A stretch of 12,295 nt of DNA from a virus (IMGVR_UViG_2740892233_000003); one strand, 5' to 3'. Counted from the first letter of the stretch, positions 1-8,047 are shown. Made by a program: numbers and translations. Notes: generated by a model from the sequence alone, not told the origin.

Positions 1-130
1 TCTTCGATTCATGACAGCCAATCATCTTTGCCAGACCGCGCTGGGTAAGCGTTGACAGGTTGATGAGTAAATCTGTTTCTGCGCGATCAATTTCTCGCTG
101 TGTTAGCTTGCTGTAACTTGCTTGTGCCAT
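1..130 (-). CDS. cII: CII-family transcriptional activator, N-terminal 43 codons only (runs off the window start)
   Basis: Reverse-strand translation from ATG at 130 gives MAQASYSKLTQREIDRAETDLLINLSTLTQRGLAKMIGCHESK, near-identical to the N-terminus of the complete CII-like ORF at 2299-2589. Lies downstream of cro and nutR as in lambda. Confidence 0.7.
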   Translation of the reverse strand, partial: MAQASYSKLTQREIDRAETDLLINLSTLTQRGLAKMIGCHESK

Positions 131-191
131 TTGTTAATTTTCCTATATTGATATATAGCGGCACACCCAGTGGATTTGCCGCTGATGTTTG

Positions 192-233
192 CTCACCCGG
201 TTAGAGGTGAAAGGCCAGAACTGTTAAAGAGCA
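192..233 (-). promoter_or_regulatory. nutR-like site of module 1 (boxA plus boxB hairpin) on the cro/cII transcript
   Basis: Reverse strand reads TGCTCTTTAACA (boxA-like) followed by TTCACCTCTAACCGGGTGAG, a stem-loop (UCACC / GGUGA). As I recall it, this matches the phi21-type boxB. Position between cro and cII is correct for nutR. Confidence 0.5.
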
Positions 234-239
234 ATTTAC

Positions 240-425
240 TTATGCCGCTTGGCGGTAAGCACTTTCTTGATACTTCAGGGCGCCAGCTGTAACGATTTCC
301 AATCGATAGGCGTCTTTCTCTGGGATAACTTCTTTCCACTGAGAGACTGCTGCATCGCTAATGCCTAGTGCTTTAGCAACAGCACGCTGGGTTCCGAAGT
401 GGTCAATAACATCTTTTTTGTACAT
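240..425 (-). CDS. cro: Cro repressor, P22-type (61 aa)
   Basis: Translation MYKKDVIDHFGTQRAVAKALGISDAAVSQWKEVIPEKDAYRLEIVTAGALKYQESAYRQAA matches my memory of P22 Cro almost residue for residue. Divergent from the c2 repressor across an operator region. Confidence 0.85.
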   Translation of the reverse strand: MYKKDVIDHFGTQRAVAKALGISDAAVSQWKEVIPEKDAYRLEIVTAGALKYQESAYRQAA

Positions 426-439
426 AGACTCGCTCCGAA

Positions 440-505
440 ATTAAAGAACACTTAAATTATCCACCAAAGGAATCTTAAGTCAAGTTTATTTAAGATGTCT
501 TAACT
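440..505. promoter_or_regulatory. OR operator/promoter region of module 1 (three P22-type 18-bp operators, pR/pRM)
   Basis: Three sites fit the P22 operator pattern ANTNAAG-N4-CTTNANT: 440-457 ATTAAAGAACACTTAAAT, 463-480 ACCAAAGGAATCTTAAGT, 488-505 ATTTAAGATGTCTTAACT. The last abuts the c2 start codon. Confidence 0.65.
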
Positions 506-1156
506 ATGAATACACAACTGATGGGTGAGCGTATTCGCGCTCGCAGAAAAGAACTCAAGATTAGGCAGGCTGCCCTTGGCAAGATGGTTGGCGTGTCTAA
601 TGTTGCTATTTCCCAATGGGAGCGATCTGAAACTGAGCCCAATGGCGAAAACCTATTGGCCTTAGCCAAGGCTTTGCAGTGCTCCCCTGATTACCTGTTG
701 AAAGGAGAGGATAGTCTTTCAAACATTGCCTATCACAGCAGGCATGATCCAAGAGGTTCGTATCCTCTAATTAGTTGGGTAAGCGCAGGATGTTGGATGG
801 AAGCTGTAGAGCCATATCATAGGCGTGCAATAGATAACTGGTACGACACAACGGTAGATTGTTCTGAAGACTCTTTTTGGCTCGACGTTAAAGGTGATTC
901 AATGACTGCCCCGGCAGGACTGAGTATTCCTGAAGGGATGATTATTCTCGTCGACCCAGAAGTCGAACCACGTAATGGAAAGCTGGTAGTCGCCAAACTT
1001 GAAGGAGAAAACGAGGCGACATTCAAAAAGTTAGTTATTGATGCCGGTAGAAAATTCCTGAAACCACTCAATCCACAATACCCAATGATTGAAATCAATG
1101 GGAACTGTAAAATCATTGGCGTTGTCGTTGATGCCAAGCTAGCAAACCTTCCTTAA
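506..1156 (+). CDS. c2: C2 repressor, P22-type, LexA/S24 peptidase family (216 aa)
   Basis: Translation MNTQLMGERIRARRKELKIRQAALGKMVGVSNVAISQWERSETEPNGENLLALAKALQC... is near-identical to my memory of P22 C2. N-terminal HTH, C-terminal S24 autocleavage domain with GDSM motif and catalytic Lys. Confidence 0.9.
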   Translation: MNTQLMGERIRARRKELKIRQAALGKMVGVSNVAISQWERSETEPNGENLLALAKALQCSPDYLLKGEDSLSNIAYHSRHDPRGSYPLISWVSAGCWMEAVEPYHRRAIDNWYDTTVDCSEDSFWLDVKGDSMTAPAGLSIPEGMIILVDPEVEPRNGKLVVAKLEGENEATFKKLVIDAGRKFLKPLNPQYPMIEINGNCKIIGVVVDAKLANLP

Positions 1157-1180
1157 GGGGCTTTCGCCCCTTTTTTATTT
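1157..1180 (+). terminator. Rho-independent terminator after c2
   Basis: GGGGC-tttc-GCCCC hairpin followed by TTTTTTATTT, directly after the c2 stop codon. Confidence 0.7.
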
Positions 1181-1220
1181 CCCGTTAAAAATCAAAGACA
1201 AACTAAATTCGCGCCCATAA

Positions 1221-1274
1221 AATTAAGTTTTCTTCAAAAATGCACTTGACCAAAAAATTAAGAGGTCTTAAATT
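1221..1274 (+). promoter_or_regulatory. OL operators and pL promoter of module 1
   Basis: P22-type operator-like sites AATTAAGTTTTCTTCAAA (1221-1238) and AATTAAGAGGTCTTAAAT (1256-1273). TTGACC -35 at 1246-1251 and TAAATT -10 at 1269-1274 with 17-bp spacing, reading toward N. Confidence 0.55.
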
Positions 1275-1320
1275 TAAGCCGTCAGCAGGAGGCTGGAAGC
1301 CAAACGGAACAGATTGGCAG

Positions 1321-1359
1321 GCTCTTTAACATCGACGAACTCTCAACCTAACCGTTGAG
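1321..1359 (+). promoter_or_regulatory. nutL-like site of module 1 (boxA GCTCTTTAACA plus boxB hairpin)
   Basis: boxA-like GCTCTTTAACA at 1321-1331. Hairpin CTCAAC-ctaacc-GTTGAG at 1342-1359, in the pL leader upstream of N. Confidence 0.55.
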
Positions 1360-1470
1360 ACCAGAACTTGAGTGGTTTTGGGGATGGCGCGAATTGCAGC
1401 TGCAAGACAGCGATCGAGAAGATAAGCACCTCGACGCGTCATGCGCCAAAGCCACTTAAAGGAGACCATC

Positions 1471-1776
1471 ATGGTAACCATTGTCTGGAAAGAATCCAAA
1501 GGTACGGCAAAAAGCCGCTACAAAGCTCGCAGAGCAGAACTTATTGCCGAGCGACGCAGTAATGAAGCACTGGCGCGAAAAATTGCGCTAAAGCTCTCTG
1601 GTTGCGTCAGAGCAGACAAAGCAGCATCACTAGGAAGCCTTTGCTGCAAGAAGAAAGAAGAAGTTGTTCGAAAAAATAGAAGTATTTATTACAAGGATTC
1701 AAACCCATTAGGAAACAAAATACATGCAGTCCAAAAAATAAAATTGTACAGTAAACTACCGTACGGTGCTTATTGA
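1471..1776 (+). CDS. N: N-type transcription antiterminator with phi21-like arginine-rich motif (101 aa)
   Basis: AGGAG 6 nt upstream of ATG 1471. Translation MVTIVWKESKGTAKSRYKARRAELIAERR... contains GTAKSRYKARRAELIAERR, which I recall as the phi21 N boxB-binding peptide. First gene after pL and nutL. The upstream ATG at 1441 has no ribosome-binding site. Confidence 0.75.
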   Translation: MVTIVWKESKGTAKSRYKARRAELIAERRSNEALARKIALKLSGCVRADKAASLGSLCCKKKEEVVRKNRSIYYKDSNPLGNKIHAVQKIKLYSKLPYGAY

Positions 1777-1784
1777 GTATGCTT

Positions 1785-2117
1785 ATGGTGAAAAAGACTA
1801 TTTATGTTAATCCTGACCGCGGACAAAACAGAAAAGTATCTGATAGAGGTCTTACATCTCGAGACAGGAGGAGAATAGCGAGATGGGAAAAGAGGATAGC
1901 ATATGCATTAAAAAACGGTGTAACACCTGGATTTAATGCTATAGATGACGGTCCTGAATATAAGATTAATGAAGACCCAATGGACAAAGTTGACAAAGCA
2001 TTAGCAACACCATTTCCTCGCGATGTCGAAAAAATTGAAGATGAAAAATATGAGGATGTAATGCACAGAGTTGTTAATCACGCTCACCAACGAAATCCAA
2101 ATAAAAAATGGTCATAG
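1785..2117 (+). CDS. nun: Nun-like transcription termination / phage exclusion factor (HK022 Nun homolog, 110 aa)
   Basis: Translation MVKKTIYVNPDRGQNRKVSDRGLTSRDRRRIARWEKRIAYALKNGV...HAHQRNPNKKWS. Arginine-rich motif SRDRRRIARWEKRIAYALK and the C-terminal KKWS tail (penultimate Trp) are the hallmarks of HK022 Nun as I remember it. Start is 8 nt after the N stop. Confidence 0.8.
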   Translation: MVKKTIYVNPDRGQNRKVSDRGLTSRDRRRIARWEKRIAYALKNGVTPGFNAIDDGPEYKINEDPMDKVDKALATPFPRDVEKIEDEKYEDVMHRVVNHAHQRNPNKKWS

Positions 2118-2137
2118 CCCACTTCGGTGGGTTTTTT
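2118..2137 (+). terminator. Rho-independent terminator after nun
   Basis: CCCAC-ttcg-GTGGG hairpin followed by TTTTTT, immediately after the stop codon. Confidence 0.7.
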
Positions 2138-2288
2138 ATTGGCTGAACTAACCTAATTTATTACAGCAAGCCACGCAGTGAAATGGGTGTGACTTGTGTT
2201 GGTCGCCAGAAAATGAAATTAGGCAGCAAACCACTTATTTGAGGTGAGATATGACAAAATCATGGAGCGTACCTTTTCCTGAATCAGN

Positions 2289-2298
2289 NNNNNNNNNC
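2289..2298. other. Run of 10 N (assembly gap or masked bases)
   Basis: Literal n characters. The flanks are not collinear: a + strand gene start (RBS GAGGTGA, ATG 2251) on the left, the 3' end of a - strand cII on the right. Confidence 0.95.
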
Positions 2299-2589
2299 CA
2301 TCTGGATTTGTTCAGAACGCTCGGTCTTGCACACCGGGCGTTTTTTATTGGTGAGTCCATCAAGCGCATACTTAAAAGCTCTGCTAATCGGACTGATGTC
2401 TGATGCCATTCCGAAAGCACACAAGACCGAAGCAATAAATCTCCAGTCCGTTCTGCTTATCTTCGATTCATGACAGCCAATCATCTTTGCCAGACCGCGC
2501 TGGGTAAGCGTTGACAGGTTGATAAGTAAATCTGTTTCTGCGCGATCAACATCACGCTGTGATAGTTTGCTGTAACTTGTTTGTTCCAT
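2299..2589 (-). CDS. cII: CII-family transcriptional activator, module 2 (C-terminal few codons and stop lost in the N run)
   Basis: Translation MEQTSYSKLSQRDVDRAETDLLINLSTLTQRGLAKMIGCHESKISRTDWRF...LTNKKRPVCKTERSEQIQM. The C-terminal NKKRP...TERSEQIQM matches the lambda CII C-terminus as I recall it. ATG at 2589. Confidence 0.75.
2460..2589. repeat. 130-bp near-identical copy of window positions 1-130 (cII 5' coding region)
   Basis: Direct comparison of the two stretches shows only a handful of mismatches. Both encode CII N-termini. Confidence 0.9.
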
Positions 2590-2674
2590 TTCTTAAGATT
2601 TCCAATAGTGAATAGCTAGTTGAAAGGTATGCGTGGAAACGCATATGGCCTTAGTTGGTCAGATATCTTGGAAC

Positions 2675-2720
2675 TCGCTTTTCAGCGACGTAGGACGAAT
2701 GTCCGTTGTTACAAAGAGCG
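2675..2720 (-). promoter_or_regulatory. nutR-like site of module 2 (boxA CGCTCTTTGTAACA plus boxB TCGCTGAAAAGCGA, read on the - strand)
   Basis: Reverse complement of 2707-2720 is CGCTCTTTGTAACA. Reverse complement of 2675-2688 is TCGCTGAAAAGCGA, a GAAAA-loop hairpin like lambda boxB. Lies between the cro-like gene and cII. Confidence 0.45.
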
Positions 2721-2727
2721 GGGTTAC

Positions 2728-2961
2728 TTATGCTGCTGATGCTCTACGCGATACGAACACCAGATTTTCCTTTTTCACAGGTTTATAACCCGTGAAATTA
2801 CGAGTGGCTTCTTCGATTGCATTCGCTTTATCTGGGGAAGCTCTTCGAAACCCATATACAATCTGATCAAGATAGCCAACTGAAGTATTCGCTAATGCGG
2901 CGAGTCGCTTCCATTCCTCACTAGAAGCCTCTTTTCGCCAGCGTAGTAGTTCATTACTCAT
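2728..2961 (-). CDS. Cro-like HTH DNA-binding regulator of module 2 (77 aa)
   Basis: Divergently placed from the repressor across an operator region. GGAGG ribosome-binding site upstream. Small HTH-like protein. Called by position and size, not by recognised sequence identity. Confidence 0.6.
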   Translation of the reverse strand: MSNELLRWRKEASSEEWKRLAALANTSVGYLDQIVYGFRRASPDKANAIEEATRNFTGYKPVKKENLVFVSRRASAA

Positions 2962-2970
2962 TAGTGCCTC

Positions 2971-3058
2971 CGTTTATCACACAGAGCGACTTTACCATTT
3001 TGATAAATAAAACGCAATGAAGATTTATCAAAATGCATATTTATCCATTTGCTAAATA
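2971..3058. promoter_or_regulatory. OR operator/promoter region of module 2 (TTTATCA-type half-sites)
   Basis: Repeated TTTATCA / TGATAAA half-sites. Perfect 11-bp inverted repeat TTTTGATAAAT (2998-3008) and ATTTATCAAAA (3023-3033). Further copies at 2973-2979 and 3040-3049. Confidence 0.45.
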
Positions 3059-3074
3059 GAGGGAGAATCGTGGG

Positions 3075-3779
3075 ATGGAAAACAAAGATATTCGCAAATC
3101 GAATCTGGCGTTTTTGCTAGATGAGCATAAAAAAATCGCGGGTAACACTAATGCAAGCTTTGCCGATAAGCTTGGAGTTAGCCCTTCTCAACTCACGCAA
3201 GTCTCCGGTGAAAAAAGCACTCGAAACATAGGGGATAAACTAGCAAGAAAATTCGAAGCCGCACTTGGGTTACCTAATGGGTGGCTTGATTTGGTACATG
3301 ATGTAACACCAATTGCATCATGCTCAGATTCTTTAACTTTTGTCGGTCAGGTAAGAAAAGGGTTAGTGCGCGTGGTTGGTGAGGCAATTCTTGGTGTTGA
3401 TGGTGCCATCGAGATGACCGAAGAGCGCGATGGGTGGCTCAATATTTATAGCGATGATCCAGATGCCTTTGGTCTTCGTGTGAAAGGAGACAGCATGTGG
3501 CCCAGAATAAAATCAGGAGAATATGTACTCATTGAGCCTAACACCAAAGTATTCCCGGGGGATGAGGTGTTTGTCAGAACTGTTGAAGGACACAACATGA
3601 TCAAAGTTCTTGGCTATGACAGAGATGGAGAATACCAATTTACAAGCATCAACCAGGACCACAGGCCAATAACGTTGCCTTATCATCAAGTAGCAAAGGT
3701 GGAGTATGTGGCTGGTATTCTGAAGCAATCTCGCCATCTGGATGACATCGAGGCAAGGGAGTGGCTGAAAAGTTCGTGA
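3075..3779 (+). CDS. cI: CI-type prophage repressor, LexA/S24 peptidase family (234 aa), different specificity from module 1
   Basis: GAGGGAG ribosome-binding site. N-terminal HTH region. C-terminal S24 domain with VKGDSMWPRIKSGEYVLIEP (Ser nucleophile in GDSM, Lys general base). Confidence 0.85.
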   Translation: MENKDIRKSNLAFLLDEHKKIAGNTNASFADKLGVSPSQLTQVSGEKSTRNIGDKLARKFEAALGLPNGWLDLVHDVTPIASCSDSLTFVGQVRKGLVRVVGEAILGVDGAIEMTEERDGWLNIYSDDPDAFGLRVKGDSMWPRIKSGEYVLIEPNTKVFPGDEVFVRTVEGHNMIKVLGYDRDGEYQFTSINQDHRPITLPYHQVAKVEYVAGILKQSRHLDDIEAREWLKSS

Positions 3780-4837: not shown

Positions 4838-4887
4838 CAGGACGCTGTAAGCCAAACGGAGCAGACTGGCAGGCTCTTTAAACAACG
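4838..4887. repeat. Conserved pL leader / boxA segment shared with 1283-1332
   Basis: GCAGGA(g/c)GCTG(g/t)AAGCCAAACGGA(a/g)CAGA(t/c)TGGCAGGCTCTTTAA is shared between the two modules. Confidence 0.8.
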
Positions 4888-4918
4888 TCGAACACTCGAC
4901 TACGTGGCTGAAAAGCCA
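4872..4918 (+). promoter_or_regulatory. nutL-like site of module 2 (boxA GGCTCTTTAAACA plus boxB TGGCTGAAAAGCCA)
   Basis: boxA-like at 4872-4884. GAAAA-loop hairpin at 4905-4918. A second small hairpin GTCGA-acac-TCGAC lies between them at 4887-4900. Confidence 0.5.
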
Positions 4919-6215: not shown

Positions 6216-7076
6216 ATGTCCTTTGTGCCTGATATCACAACGGCAAAGGGCAGAAAGGAGATCGCTTATCTGGCGTATAAAGTTGCGCAGACGAAAACAT
6301 ATCTCGATGGTCTTGGCAAAGACCTTGTTGCTGAACTGAAGGAAATTCCAAAGCTAATTGATGCTAACCGCAAGACAGTGCGCGATCGCCTTGATGAACT
6401 GAAAGCCAAGGCGCGCCAGCCTCTTACTGATTATGAGGAAGAACAGGCGCGGATTAAAGCCGAAGAAGAAGCTAAGGCAGCAGCTGAAGCTCTCGCAAAG
6501 CAAATTGAGTCTGACCATGAAATAGCGATTTTGATGGATCGCGAATTTGACCGCCAAAGAGAAGAGGCAAGACTCAAAGCGGAGCAGGAAAAGCGAGAGC
6601 ATGAAGAACGCTTAAAAAGAGAAGCTGAAGAGAAAGCCAGAGCTGAAGCCGAAGCAAAGGCAAAAGCCGAAATTGAAGCAGCAGCAAGGCGAGAAGCAGA
6701 AGCTAAGGCCGCAGAGGAACGTGCAGAGCGTGAACGCATTGAAGCCGAGCAACGAGCACAGCGCGAAGCAAAAGAGGCAGCAGAACGAGCTGAAAGAGAA
6801 AAGCATGCGGCAATTGAAGCAGAACGCCGTAAAGCACAGGAGGAGGCAGAACGAATCCTGCGCGAGGCTGAAGCAAAAGAGCAAGCCAGAATAGCAGAAG
6901 AAAAAAGAATCAAGGACGAAGAAGAGCGTAGAGCAAAGGATAAAGCTCACCGGAAAGAAGTAAATAACAAAATACTTGCTGACCTTATCAAGGTTGGCGC
7001 ATCAGAAGATGTTGCTAAAAATATCATAACAGCCATCGTAAAAGGCGAATTATTCGCAACAAAAATAACCTACTAA
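6216..7076 (+). CDS. Highly charged coiled-coil / low-complexity protein (286 aa as drawn); an in-frame upstream start at 6108 is cut by a TAG at 6165
   Basis: Long ORF with a central A/E/K/R-rich repeat region (KAEEEAKAAAEA..., AEAEAKAKAEIEAAARREAEAKAAEE...). The strong-RBS ATG at 6108 is in the same frame but separated by one amber codon. ATG 6216 has only a weak ribosome-binding site. Confidence 0.6.
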   Translation: MSFVPDITTAKGRKEIAYLAYKVAQTKTYLDGLGKDLVAELKEIPKLIDANRKTVRDRLDELKAKARQPLTDYEEEQARIKAEEEAKAAAEALAKQIESDHEIAILMDREFDRQREEARLKAEQEKREHEERLKREAEEKARAEAEAKAKAEIEAAARREAEAKAAEERAERERIEAEQRAQREAKEAAERAEREKHAAIEAERRKAQEEAERILREAEAKEQARIAEEKRIKDEEERRAKDKAHRKEVNNKILADLIKVGASEDVAKNIITAIVKGELFATKITY

Positions 7077-7100: not shown

Positions 7101-7232
7101 ATGATTTACGCAATCGCGGGAGGCGCTCGCATGGGTGCCTTCCAATTAAATGAATCTTTACTTGAACGAATCACCCGTAAATTACGTGACGGATGGAAAA
7201 GAGTTGAGGTCTTATTATGCGCAATGAAATAG
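7101..7232 (+). CDS. cIII: CIII-like protein (FtsH inhibitor / CII stabiliser), copy 1 (43 aa)
   Basis: Translation MIYAIAGGARMGAFQLNESLLERITRKLRDGWKRVEVLLCAMK. The core ESLLERITRKLRDGWKR is identical to the lambda CIII central helix as I recall it. Confidence 0.7.
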   Translation: MIYAIAGGARMGAFQLNESLLERITRKLRDGWKRVEVLLCAMK

Positions 7233-7348
7233 CCATCAATCACCAGATGCTTCGTGCTGCACAGAACAAGGCAGTAATAGCCCGATTTATTGGTGATTCA
7301 AAAATGTGGCTTGAAGCAAATAAAGCGATGAAATCAGCTATCAACCTN
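7217..7348 (+). CDS. kil: Kil-like protein, copy 1 (3' end lost in the N run)
   Basis: Start overlaps the cIII stop. Translation MRNEIAINHQMLRAAQNKAVIARFIGDSKMWLEANKAMKSAINL... The IA.FIGD.KM segment resembles lambda Kil. Near-identical to the complete copy at 7895-8047. Confidence 0.55.
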
Positions 7349-7358
7349 NNNNNNNNNA
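7349..7358. other. Run of 10 N (assembly gap or masked bases)
   Basis: Literal n characters, inside a duplicated cIII-kil module. The right flank 7359-7388 repeats the terminator-tail and RBS cassette of 6078-6107. Confidence 0.95.
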
Positions 7359-7775: not shown

Positions 7776-7910
7776 ATGATGCACTTTCAGCTCGCGGGTA
7801 GCGGCGTCATGTCCGCTTTCTACCCGCACGAATCTGAATTATCACGCCGAGTTAAACAATTAATTAGAGCAGCAAAGAAACAACTGGAGGCGTTATGCGC
7901 AATGAAATAG
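7776..7910 (+). CDS. CIII-like protein, divergent copy 2 (44 aa)
   Basis: AGGAG ribosome-binding site. Translation MMHFQLAGSGVMSAFYPHESELSRRVKQLIRAAKKQLEALCAMK. Same architecture and the same C-terminal LCAMK overlap with kil as copy 1, but the core is diverged. Confidence 0.5.
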   Translation: MMHFQLAGSGVMSAFYPHESELSRRVKQLIRAAKKQLEALCAMK

Positions 7911-8047
7911 CCATTAATCACCAGATGCTTCGTGCGGCACAAAACAAAGCAGTAATAGCCAGATTTATTGGTGATTCAAAAATGTGGCTTGAAGCAAATA
8001 AAGCGATGAAATCAGCTATCAACCTTCCGTGGTATCGCAGGAAATGA
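7895..8047 (+). CDS. kil: Kil-like protein, complete copy 2 (50 aa)
   Basis: Start overlaps the stop of the cIII-like ORF. Translation MRNEIAINHQMLRAAQNKAVIARFIGDSKMWLEANKAMKSAINLPWYRRK. Confidence 0.65.
   Translation: MRNEIAINHQMLRAAQNKAVIARFIGDSKMWLEANKAMKSAINLPWYRRK

Follow-up and report, generated by a model that had tools for sequence, protein, structure and literature searches.

How can a prophage that depends on an N antiterminator also carry Nun, how would it express that protein as a lysogen, and why would it not arrest its own transcription? The question is raised by a stretch of viral DNA of 12,295 nucleotides (IMGVR_UViG_2740892233_000003; the whole stretch is called the window here), in which an earlier, sequence-only reading had placed an N gene and a Nun-like gene back to back in one pL operon. 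Nun targets the boxB hairpin of lambda nut RNA (PMC4124055; PMC5386594), and its sole known role is to exclude lambda and lambda imm434, whose nut sites are the same (PMC4124055). Phage HK022, its source, is commonly said to have substituted N by Nun (PMC9378689). In the window, the sequence elements are each identical to a characterised counterpart. With a probability of about 85%, we read the locus as a prophage of phage 21 N/nut specificity that carries an autonomous nun unit on the 3' end of its N gene. From these identities we infer that the nun promoter would be active, that lambda would be excluded and that self-arrest would not occur in this prophage.

The window and its immunity region

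The window was scaffolded from three contigs, with N10 gaps at 2288-2297 and 7348-7357. Repeated lambdoid sequences stand at the contig ends: 1-137 recurs as 2460-2596 (the 5' end of cII), and 7215-7347 recurs as 7893-8025 (a small ORF). Because of the gaps and of the contigs ending in repeats, adjacency in the scaffold is not evidence for the physical linkage of its three modules. The first contig (1-2287) wholly contains the N-nun tandem. It comes from a lambdoid prophage of the mEp235 / EHEC O26-O103 type and covers the immunity and early-left region. Its minus strand carries the 5' end of cII and the cro gene. The features upstream of N are as follows.

193 to 232, minus strand: nutR of module 1, with boxA-R at 225-232 and the boxB-R hairpin at 193-210 (UCACCUCUAACCGGGUGA); exact matches to phage 21 (OL657228), the hairpin also found by folding
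240 to 425, minus strand: cro-like gene of P22/phage 21 type, 61 aa (ORF list; the mEp235 equivalent is noted as similar to P22 Cro)
506 to 1156, plus strand: prophage repressor of P22 C2 / phage 21 cI type, 216 aa (ORF list; in mEp235 the corresponding gene carries the annotation "prophage repressor, similar to P22 C2")
1155 to 1180, plus strand: intrinsic terminator after the repressor gene (terminator scan; folding energy -12.1 kcal/mol, z = -2.9; phage 21 has an annotated terminator of identical sequence there)
1192 to 1274, plus strand: operators OL3, OL2 and OL1 with pL (OL3 and OL2 identical to the phage 21 annotation, OL1 with 1 mismatch; promoter scan)
1321 to 1360, plus strand: nutL, with boxA-L at 1321-1328 (GCTCTTTA) and boxB-L at 1341-1360; exact matches to the phage 21 boxA-L and nutL stem-loop

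The promoter scan placed the -35 element of pL (TTGACC) at 1246-1251 and its -10 element (TAAATT) at 1269-1274, with a 17-bp spacer. Cognate boxA and boxB elements, exact copies of phage 21 nutL and nutR, thus lie downstream of both pL and pR. By folding, boxB-L (UCUCAAC-CUAACC-GUUGAGA) has a 7-bp stem and the hexaloop CUAACC, and boxB-R has a 6-bp stem and the loop UAACCG. A scan of the window against Rfam gave no matches. The O26:H11 equivalent of the repressor is a LexA family protein according to RefSeq.

The other two modules of the scaffold match Stx1a-type prophages. Module 2 has nut sites of the H-19B type, nutL at 4873-4918 and nutR at 2654-2700 on the minus strand. In each, a boxA is joined by a small hairpin that covaries and by a boxB whose GAAA tetraloop (UGGCU-GAAA-AGCCA and UCGCU-GAAA-AGCGA) resembles the lambda GAAAA loop.

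A phage-21-type N and HK022 Nun side by side

The tandem itself and the sequence that follows it comprise five features.

1471 to 1776, plus strand: N antiterminator gene, 101 aa (phrog_271 and identity to phage 21 N; annotated as N in mEp235)
1724 to 1752, plus strand: PNun, the repressor-independent nun promoter predicted here (29/29 identical to the "nun gene promoter" of the O276 record)
1785 to 2117, plus strand: nun, encoding 110 aa from the ATG at 1785 or 112 aa from the in-frame ATG at 1779
2116 to 2141, plus strand: intrinsic terminator of the nun unit, CCCAC-UUCG-GUGGG followed by U6 (terminator scan and fold)
2156 to 2242, plus strand: non-functional remnant of a phage-21-type N 3' end, which translates as IYYSKPRSEMGVTCVGRQKMKLGSKPLI up to a stop codon; this is the phage 21 N C-terminus save one I-to-M change

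The sequence-only reading had recognized, after the pL leader, an N gene with the arginine-rich motif of phage 21, and comparison with phage 21 N bears this out. Residues 1-57, which cover the arginine-rich motif and the NusA-side region, are identical to those of phage 21 N; the protein contains GTAKSRYKARRAELIAERR. Residues 8-29 are identical (22/22) to the peptide in structure 1NYB, in which the arginine-rich motif of phage 21 N was solved with its own boxB. The family phrog_271, "anti-termination protein N-like", aligns to residues 1-99 (E = 4.6e-31), and on the Pfam N_peptide model N scored below the threshold. The C-terminal region, the part of N that interacts with RNA polymerase, is a variant of the YKDSNPLGNKIHAVQK type, residues 58-101 differing from phage 21. 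The C-terminus of this live N (…RKNRSIYYKDSNPLGNKIHAVQKIKLYSKLPYGAY) represents a second allele, YKDSNPxGNKIHAVQK, which is also found in the N proteins of a metagenomic phage (L012) and of a Logan contig (L010) described below. An N with this variant region may be fully functional, as the viability of mEp235-type phages suggests.

The gene that begins 8 nt past the N stop codon had been taken as essentially HK022 Nun, and so it is when aligned over the arginine-rich motif and the C-terminal tail. Over 112 residues the product shares 99.1% identity with HK022 Nun, and it matches chain N of the cryo-EM structure 6ALG at 108/109 positions. The ATG at 1785 yields the MVKK... protein used in 6ALG, and the annotations of X16093 and mEp235 begin the gene at the ATG at 1779, 2 nt past the N stop, giving 112 aa. 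The arginine-rich motif SRDRRRIARWEKRIAYALK is present, and residues 22-47 match the 1HJI peptide, that of Nun on lambda boxB, at 26/26 positions. The C-terminus, ...VVNHAHQRNPNKKWS, is identical to that of 6ALG chain N and includes KKWS; K106, K107 and the penultimate W108, which are required for Nun arrest (PMC4124055), are all kept. The family phrog_5632, "Nun-like transcription termination factor", spans the protein end to end (1-112 of 112, E = 4.5e-71); Pfam has no model of a Nun family. The nun gene is closed by its own terminator, whose stem differs from that of HK022 by a compensatory change in both arms (CCCAC/GUGGG vs CCCGC/GCGGG). The end of the tandem had earlier been set at 2137, which falls inside this terminator hairpin and its U-tract (2116-2141).

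The target of Nun and the probable sparing of the resident phage

On the preferred reading, the arginine-rich motif of Nun would bind the boxB of lambda-type nut RNA on a superinfecting phage, and the C-terminal KKW segment would then freeze RNA polymerase. The resident phage would be spared because its boxB loops, CUAACC and UAACCG, would be seen by its own N and not by Nun. That the resident nut hairpins are not of the lambda type had been proposed from the sequence, and it agrees with their exact identity to phage 21. We found no lambda-type boxB in the window, nor in any of 13 other loci, which include all the Nun-carrying contexts examined; the boxB of the metagenomic phage L012 is of yet another type. 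Since the Nun peptide is the one solved on lambda boxB and the resident nut hairpins are those of phage 21, self-arrest is probably avoided. In 1987, Robert et al. are said to have observed, with lambda hybrids, that Nun does not act on the phage 21 nut site.

The target might also be sought nearer by. In polylysogenic EHEC strains, Nun could mainly act on co-resident or related Stx-type prophages whose boxB has a GAAA loop, modulating their induction besides or instead of excluding lambda. The boxB hairpins of nutL and nutR in module 2, U(G/C)GCU-GAAA-AGC(C/G)A with a stem pair that covaries between the two sites, come close to the lambda GAAAA type, and at least 12 complete genomes have, at 100% identity, both the pL-N region of module 2 and, elsewhere on the chromosome, the N-nun stretch. 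We nevertheless regard this as unlikely: it would have to be assumed that Nun binds a tetraloop boxB or the module 2 stem, the stable co-residence of such prophages suggests that there is no lethal conflict, and the specificity of Nun has been described as limited to lambda-type nut sites (PMC4124055).

A predicted promoter for nun within the N gene

It had been pointed out from the sequence that N and nun lie too close together for a separate promoter to fit between them, so that the expression of nun in a lysogen was unclear. The first part of this statement holds, as there is no intergenic promoter. The difficulty itself is resolved by the GenBank record O276 of the HK022 immunity region, in which a nun promoter is annotated that ends 27 bp before the nun ATG. 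The same sequence, identical at 29/29 positions, lies in the window inside the 3' end of the N ORF, where a search for a promoter had indeed been advised. The predicted -35 element (ATGCAG, 1724-1729) and -10 element (TACAGT, 1747-1752) are separated by a 17-bp spacer and fall within N codons 85-94. The assignment of PNun relies on the O276 annotation and on King et al. 2000 (cited in PMC5386594), whose title speaks of the constitutive expression of nun from a repressed prophage. The match of PNun to consensus is poor (2/6 for the -35 and 4/6 for the -10), and a generic sigma-70 scan, which requires 4/6 matches in each hexamer, reported neither PNun nor any other promoter between 1275 and 2117. 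Because of this requirement and the weak -35, the silence of the scan is not evidence against PNun. In the 2000 study of King et al., PNun reportedly lies just upstream of the coding sequence, and its transcripts are reported to end downstream of nun.

As PNun overlaps the coding sequence of N, its conservation alone proves little, and codon usage was compared as well. Both hexamers are unchanged in phage PA28. They are also unchanged in the metagenomic phage L012, where only two spacer bases differ, although its Nun shares 65% identity and its N is unrelated over the first two thirds. Among codons for the same residue in L012, 2/10 are synonymously changed across the promoter and 7/12 just upstream of it, a small contrast. 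In two controls with no nun downstream, the N gene of the Logan contig L010 and the N remnant of a Citrobacter braakii contig (L009), NKIHAVQK is encoded by other codons and both hexamers are lost. Both codon comparisons, small as their numbers are, point the same way, in that they would favour a constraint on PNun of its own.

If PNun is active, we propose the following course. In the lysogen, the repressor would shut pL, and the terminator after the repressor gene would stop read-through; PNun would fire constitutively and give a short nun transcript ending at the terminator at 2116-2141. During lytic growth, nun would also be transcribed from pL, since N-modified polymerase would pass the nun terminator. 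We also considered whether nun might be expressed in the lysogen by read-through of the repressor transcript (pRM), and set this aside, because the strong terminator at 1155-1180 directly follows the repressor gene.

A further possibility is that nun is expressed solely as part of the pL operon, in lytic growth, and stays silent in the lysogen, acting only in mixed infections or having no role in exclusion by lysogens. Such an arrangement would suit a gene in the same orientation as N, 8 nt after it and with no promoter in between, and the empty sigma-70 scan fits it too. It is, however, very improbable in our view, given that the HK022 nun promoter is present base for base inside N, that its hexamers are conserved only where nun follows, and that nun has a dedicated terminator immediately behind it, as befits an autonomous unit; the constitutive expression announced in the title of King et al. 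2000 (PMC5386594) also speaks against it.

The N-nun tandem in other phages and genomes

The sequence-only reading was right that one phage carries both N and Nun, and this is not unusual. The arrangement is already known, in the sense that it is annotated in sequenced phages, and it is common in Escherichia coli. Over a stretch of 1,044 bp that begins at the repressor terminator and extends past nun, the window is 98.8% identical to phage mEp235, whose record of 2012 names the first gene of the pair "antitermination protein N" and the second "transcription termination factor Nun". The tandem is also present in mEpX1, Kapi1, PDP110P1, PA28, 06-3462 and about 12 Stx1a-converting phages. We further counted its occurrence in 5,426 complete E. 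coli genomes, at a coverage of at least 80%.

nun: 219 of 5,426 genomes
N-nun-remnant stretch: 213 of 5,426 genomes
HK022-type pL-putL-nun junction: 1 of 5,426 genomes

With 213 of the 219 nun-carrying genomes on one side and a single genome on the other, nun is normally at home in the tandem, and HK022 stands out as the exception. Copies of the tandem that are 100% identical to that of the window occur, for example, in O26:H11 strain 11368 and in O103 strain RM8385. That the window is an assembly artefact, as its two N10 gaps and its contigs ending at repeats might suggest, or that nun is a decaying passenger without function, is scarcely credible: the tandem lies in one contig and is found contiguous and 100% identical in many complete genomes, so that the gaps do not affect it and the artefact is refuted, it recurs at 98-99% identity in isolated phages, and the nun ORF, promoter and terminator are intact, with no frameshifts or promoter lesions, around a protein 99% identical to a characterised Nun.

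Two groups of relatives can be compared with the window in more detail. In mEp235 and mEpX1, as in Kapi1 and PDP110P1, the gene order is the same and DNA identity reaches 98-99% over the pL-nutL-N-nun-remnant stretch. From mEp235 the window differs by few substitutions, and beyond the N remnant it follows the sequence of PA28 and the O26 prophage instead. PA28 (Traversvirus) and the Stx1a-converting phages have the same tandem and the same N remnant, at 90.5% DNA identity and with a Nun that is 93.8% identical; they differ from the window in their repressor and immunity region, in a left recombination junction situated further 3' in N, and in a 1-nt deletion that lengthens the N ORF. In PA28 (L003, 2689-3334), this deletion near the end of N creates a 113-codon N ORF that overlaps nun. 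The RefSeq record of PA28 contains only a 138-nt "Nun-like" CDS, yet tblastn aligns the full 112-residue Nun in one piece, at 93.8%.

In the finished genomes listed, such as NC_013361.1 (L007, 6031-6677), RefSeq (PGAP) calls both N and Nun "hypothetical protein", even where they are 100% identical to those of the window, and these labels may be why the pairing looks unfamiliar. In the open-access literature, we found no discussion of N and Nun in one phage, of Nun-like proteins or of the N remnant of HK022. One practical outcome concerns annotation: behind two genes labelled as hypothetical by RefSeq, hundreds of EHEC genomes have a phage-21-type N and a fully intact Nun.

Origin of the nun unit

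Phage 21 shares with the window the pL operators, boxA, boxB, leader and N residues 1-57, all identical or nearly so, and it differs in having no nun and in having the other allele of the N C-terminal region. Its sequence matches the window in two pieces, which flank the nun unit. A 10-bp direct repeat (ATTTATTACA, encoding IYY) is found at 1684-1693 and at 2156-2165; by the positions of these repeats, the insert relative to phage 21 measures 472 bp.

The resemblance to HK022 lies in the nun unit. Here the two phages share a Nun that is 99% identical, with an identical RNA-binding peptide and arrest tail, the PNun hexamers and spacer, and a terminator directly after nun. Upstream of nun, HK022, O276 and HK75 have kept 112/116 bases of the N 3' end that is seen in the window. 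The difference is in what this DNA is: in HK022 it is a non-coding remnant that is preceded by putL, and in the window it forms the 3' end of a live, intact N that follows nutL. HK022 relies on put RNA for antitermination and has no N, and its downstream flank is IS903, where the window has the remnant of the N 3' end.

Together with PNun and its own terminator, nun forms what looks like a self-contained promoter-gene-terminator unit, and by its sequence this unit behaves as a "moron" that N bears at its 3' end. Phage 21, which matches on both sides of the unit, lacks it, and both a predicted promoter and a terminator of its own are found; what is unusual for a moron is that the promoter lies inside the coding sequence of the upstream gene. 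We suggest that nun travels with the variant N 3' end that contains its promoter, and that recombination within the N gene would have brought it into a phage-21-type N, whose former 3' end stayed behind as the remnant. The left junction inside N is at one place in mEp235 and the window and at another in PA28, as homologous exchange within N would lead one to expect. On this view, HK022 would be derived from an N-nun phage in which nutL and the front of N were replaced by put. The comparison also corrects the view of HK022 as a swap of N for Nun: in the collections searched, nun almost always accompanies N, with its predicted promoter overlapping the N coding sequence.

Nun-like proteins with other heads

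The C-terminal motif of Nun is rare: a profile search of 1.84 billion representative proteins returned it in only 16 clusters. The N-termini of these clusters carry varied arginine-rich motifs, and an N that adjoins a divergent Nun-like gene usually has a different head from it. The pattern suggests that Nun-like proteins may be a small family of nut-targeted arrest factors. A wider proposal would be that nun is a mobile unit riding on N 3' ends, with its promoter in the last N codons and HK022 as a derived form, and that the arrest tail VVNHAHQR-P-KKW on varied heads makes up a family of decoy anti-N proteins directed against the nut sites of competitors. We put this forward tentatively, at somewhat less than even odds. 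If it were true, prophages would use exclusion by transcription arrest against one another more generally than in the single case of HK022 against lambda, and this could matter for Stx induction in polylysogenic EHEC.

The individual loci vary in their layout. In the Hafnia phage Pocitis76 (L008, OL512804, 2240-3180), two Nun-like ORFs come after N, both with the Nun C-terminal motif but with different arginine-rich heads: ORF43 begins after a gap of 3 nt, and ORF42 comes after ORF43. The N-terminus of ORF42 is P22/phage 21-like, and the heads of ORF43 and of P0023 pass the Pfam threshold for the lambda N36 peptide. At two loci (L014 and L015), a Nun-like gene follows a P22-type N after a gap of 18 nt; at a third (L016), the gap between N, or an N-like ORF, and the Nun-like gene is 1 nt.

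The Logan contig L010 (ERR3406188, 2385-3940) is from an HK022-like put phage in which nun is followed by a second Nun-like ORF (97 aa), whose head resembles that of phage 21 N. After these come a terminator and a long structured leader, and then a full-length lambda-like N (Pfam N36). A lambda-type N together with Nun would seem a paradox. The conflict is not demonstrated, as an HK022-type putL lies upstream of nun and there is no lambda-type boxB in the 5.3 kb of the contig.

In the Citrobacter braakii contig L009 (MTJW01000031, 594-1060), a nun with 65% identity stands directly before 45 codons left over from the 3' end of an N gene, which mirrors the arrangement in the window. Lastly, a 286-aa ORF in module 2 (6216-7076 of the window) is very rich in Glu, Ala, Lys and Arg, contains internal 37-nt repeats and has the look of a coiled coil.
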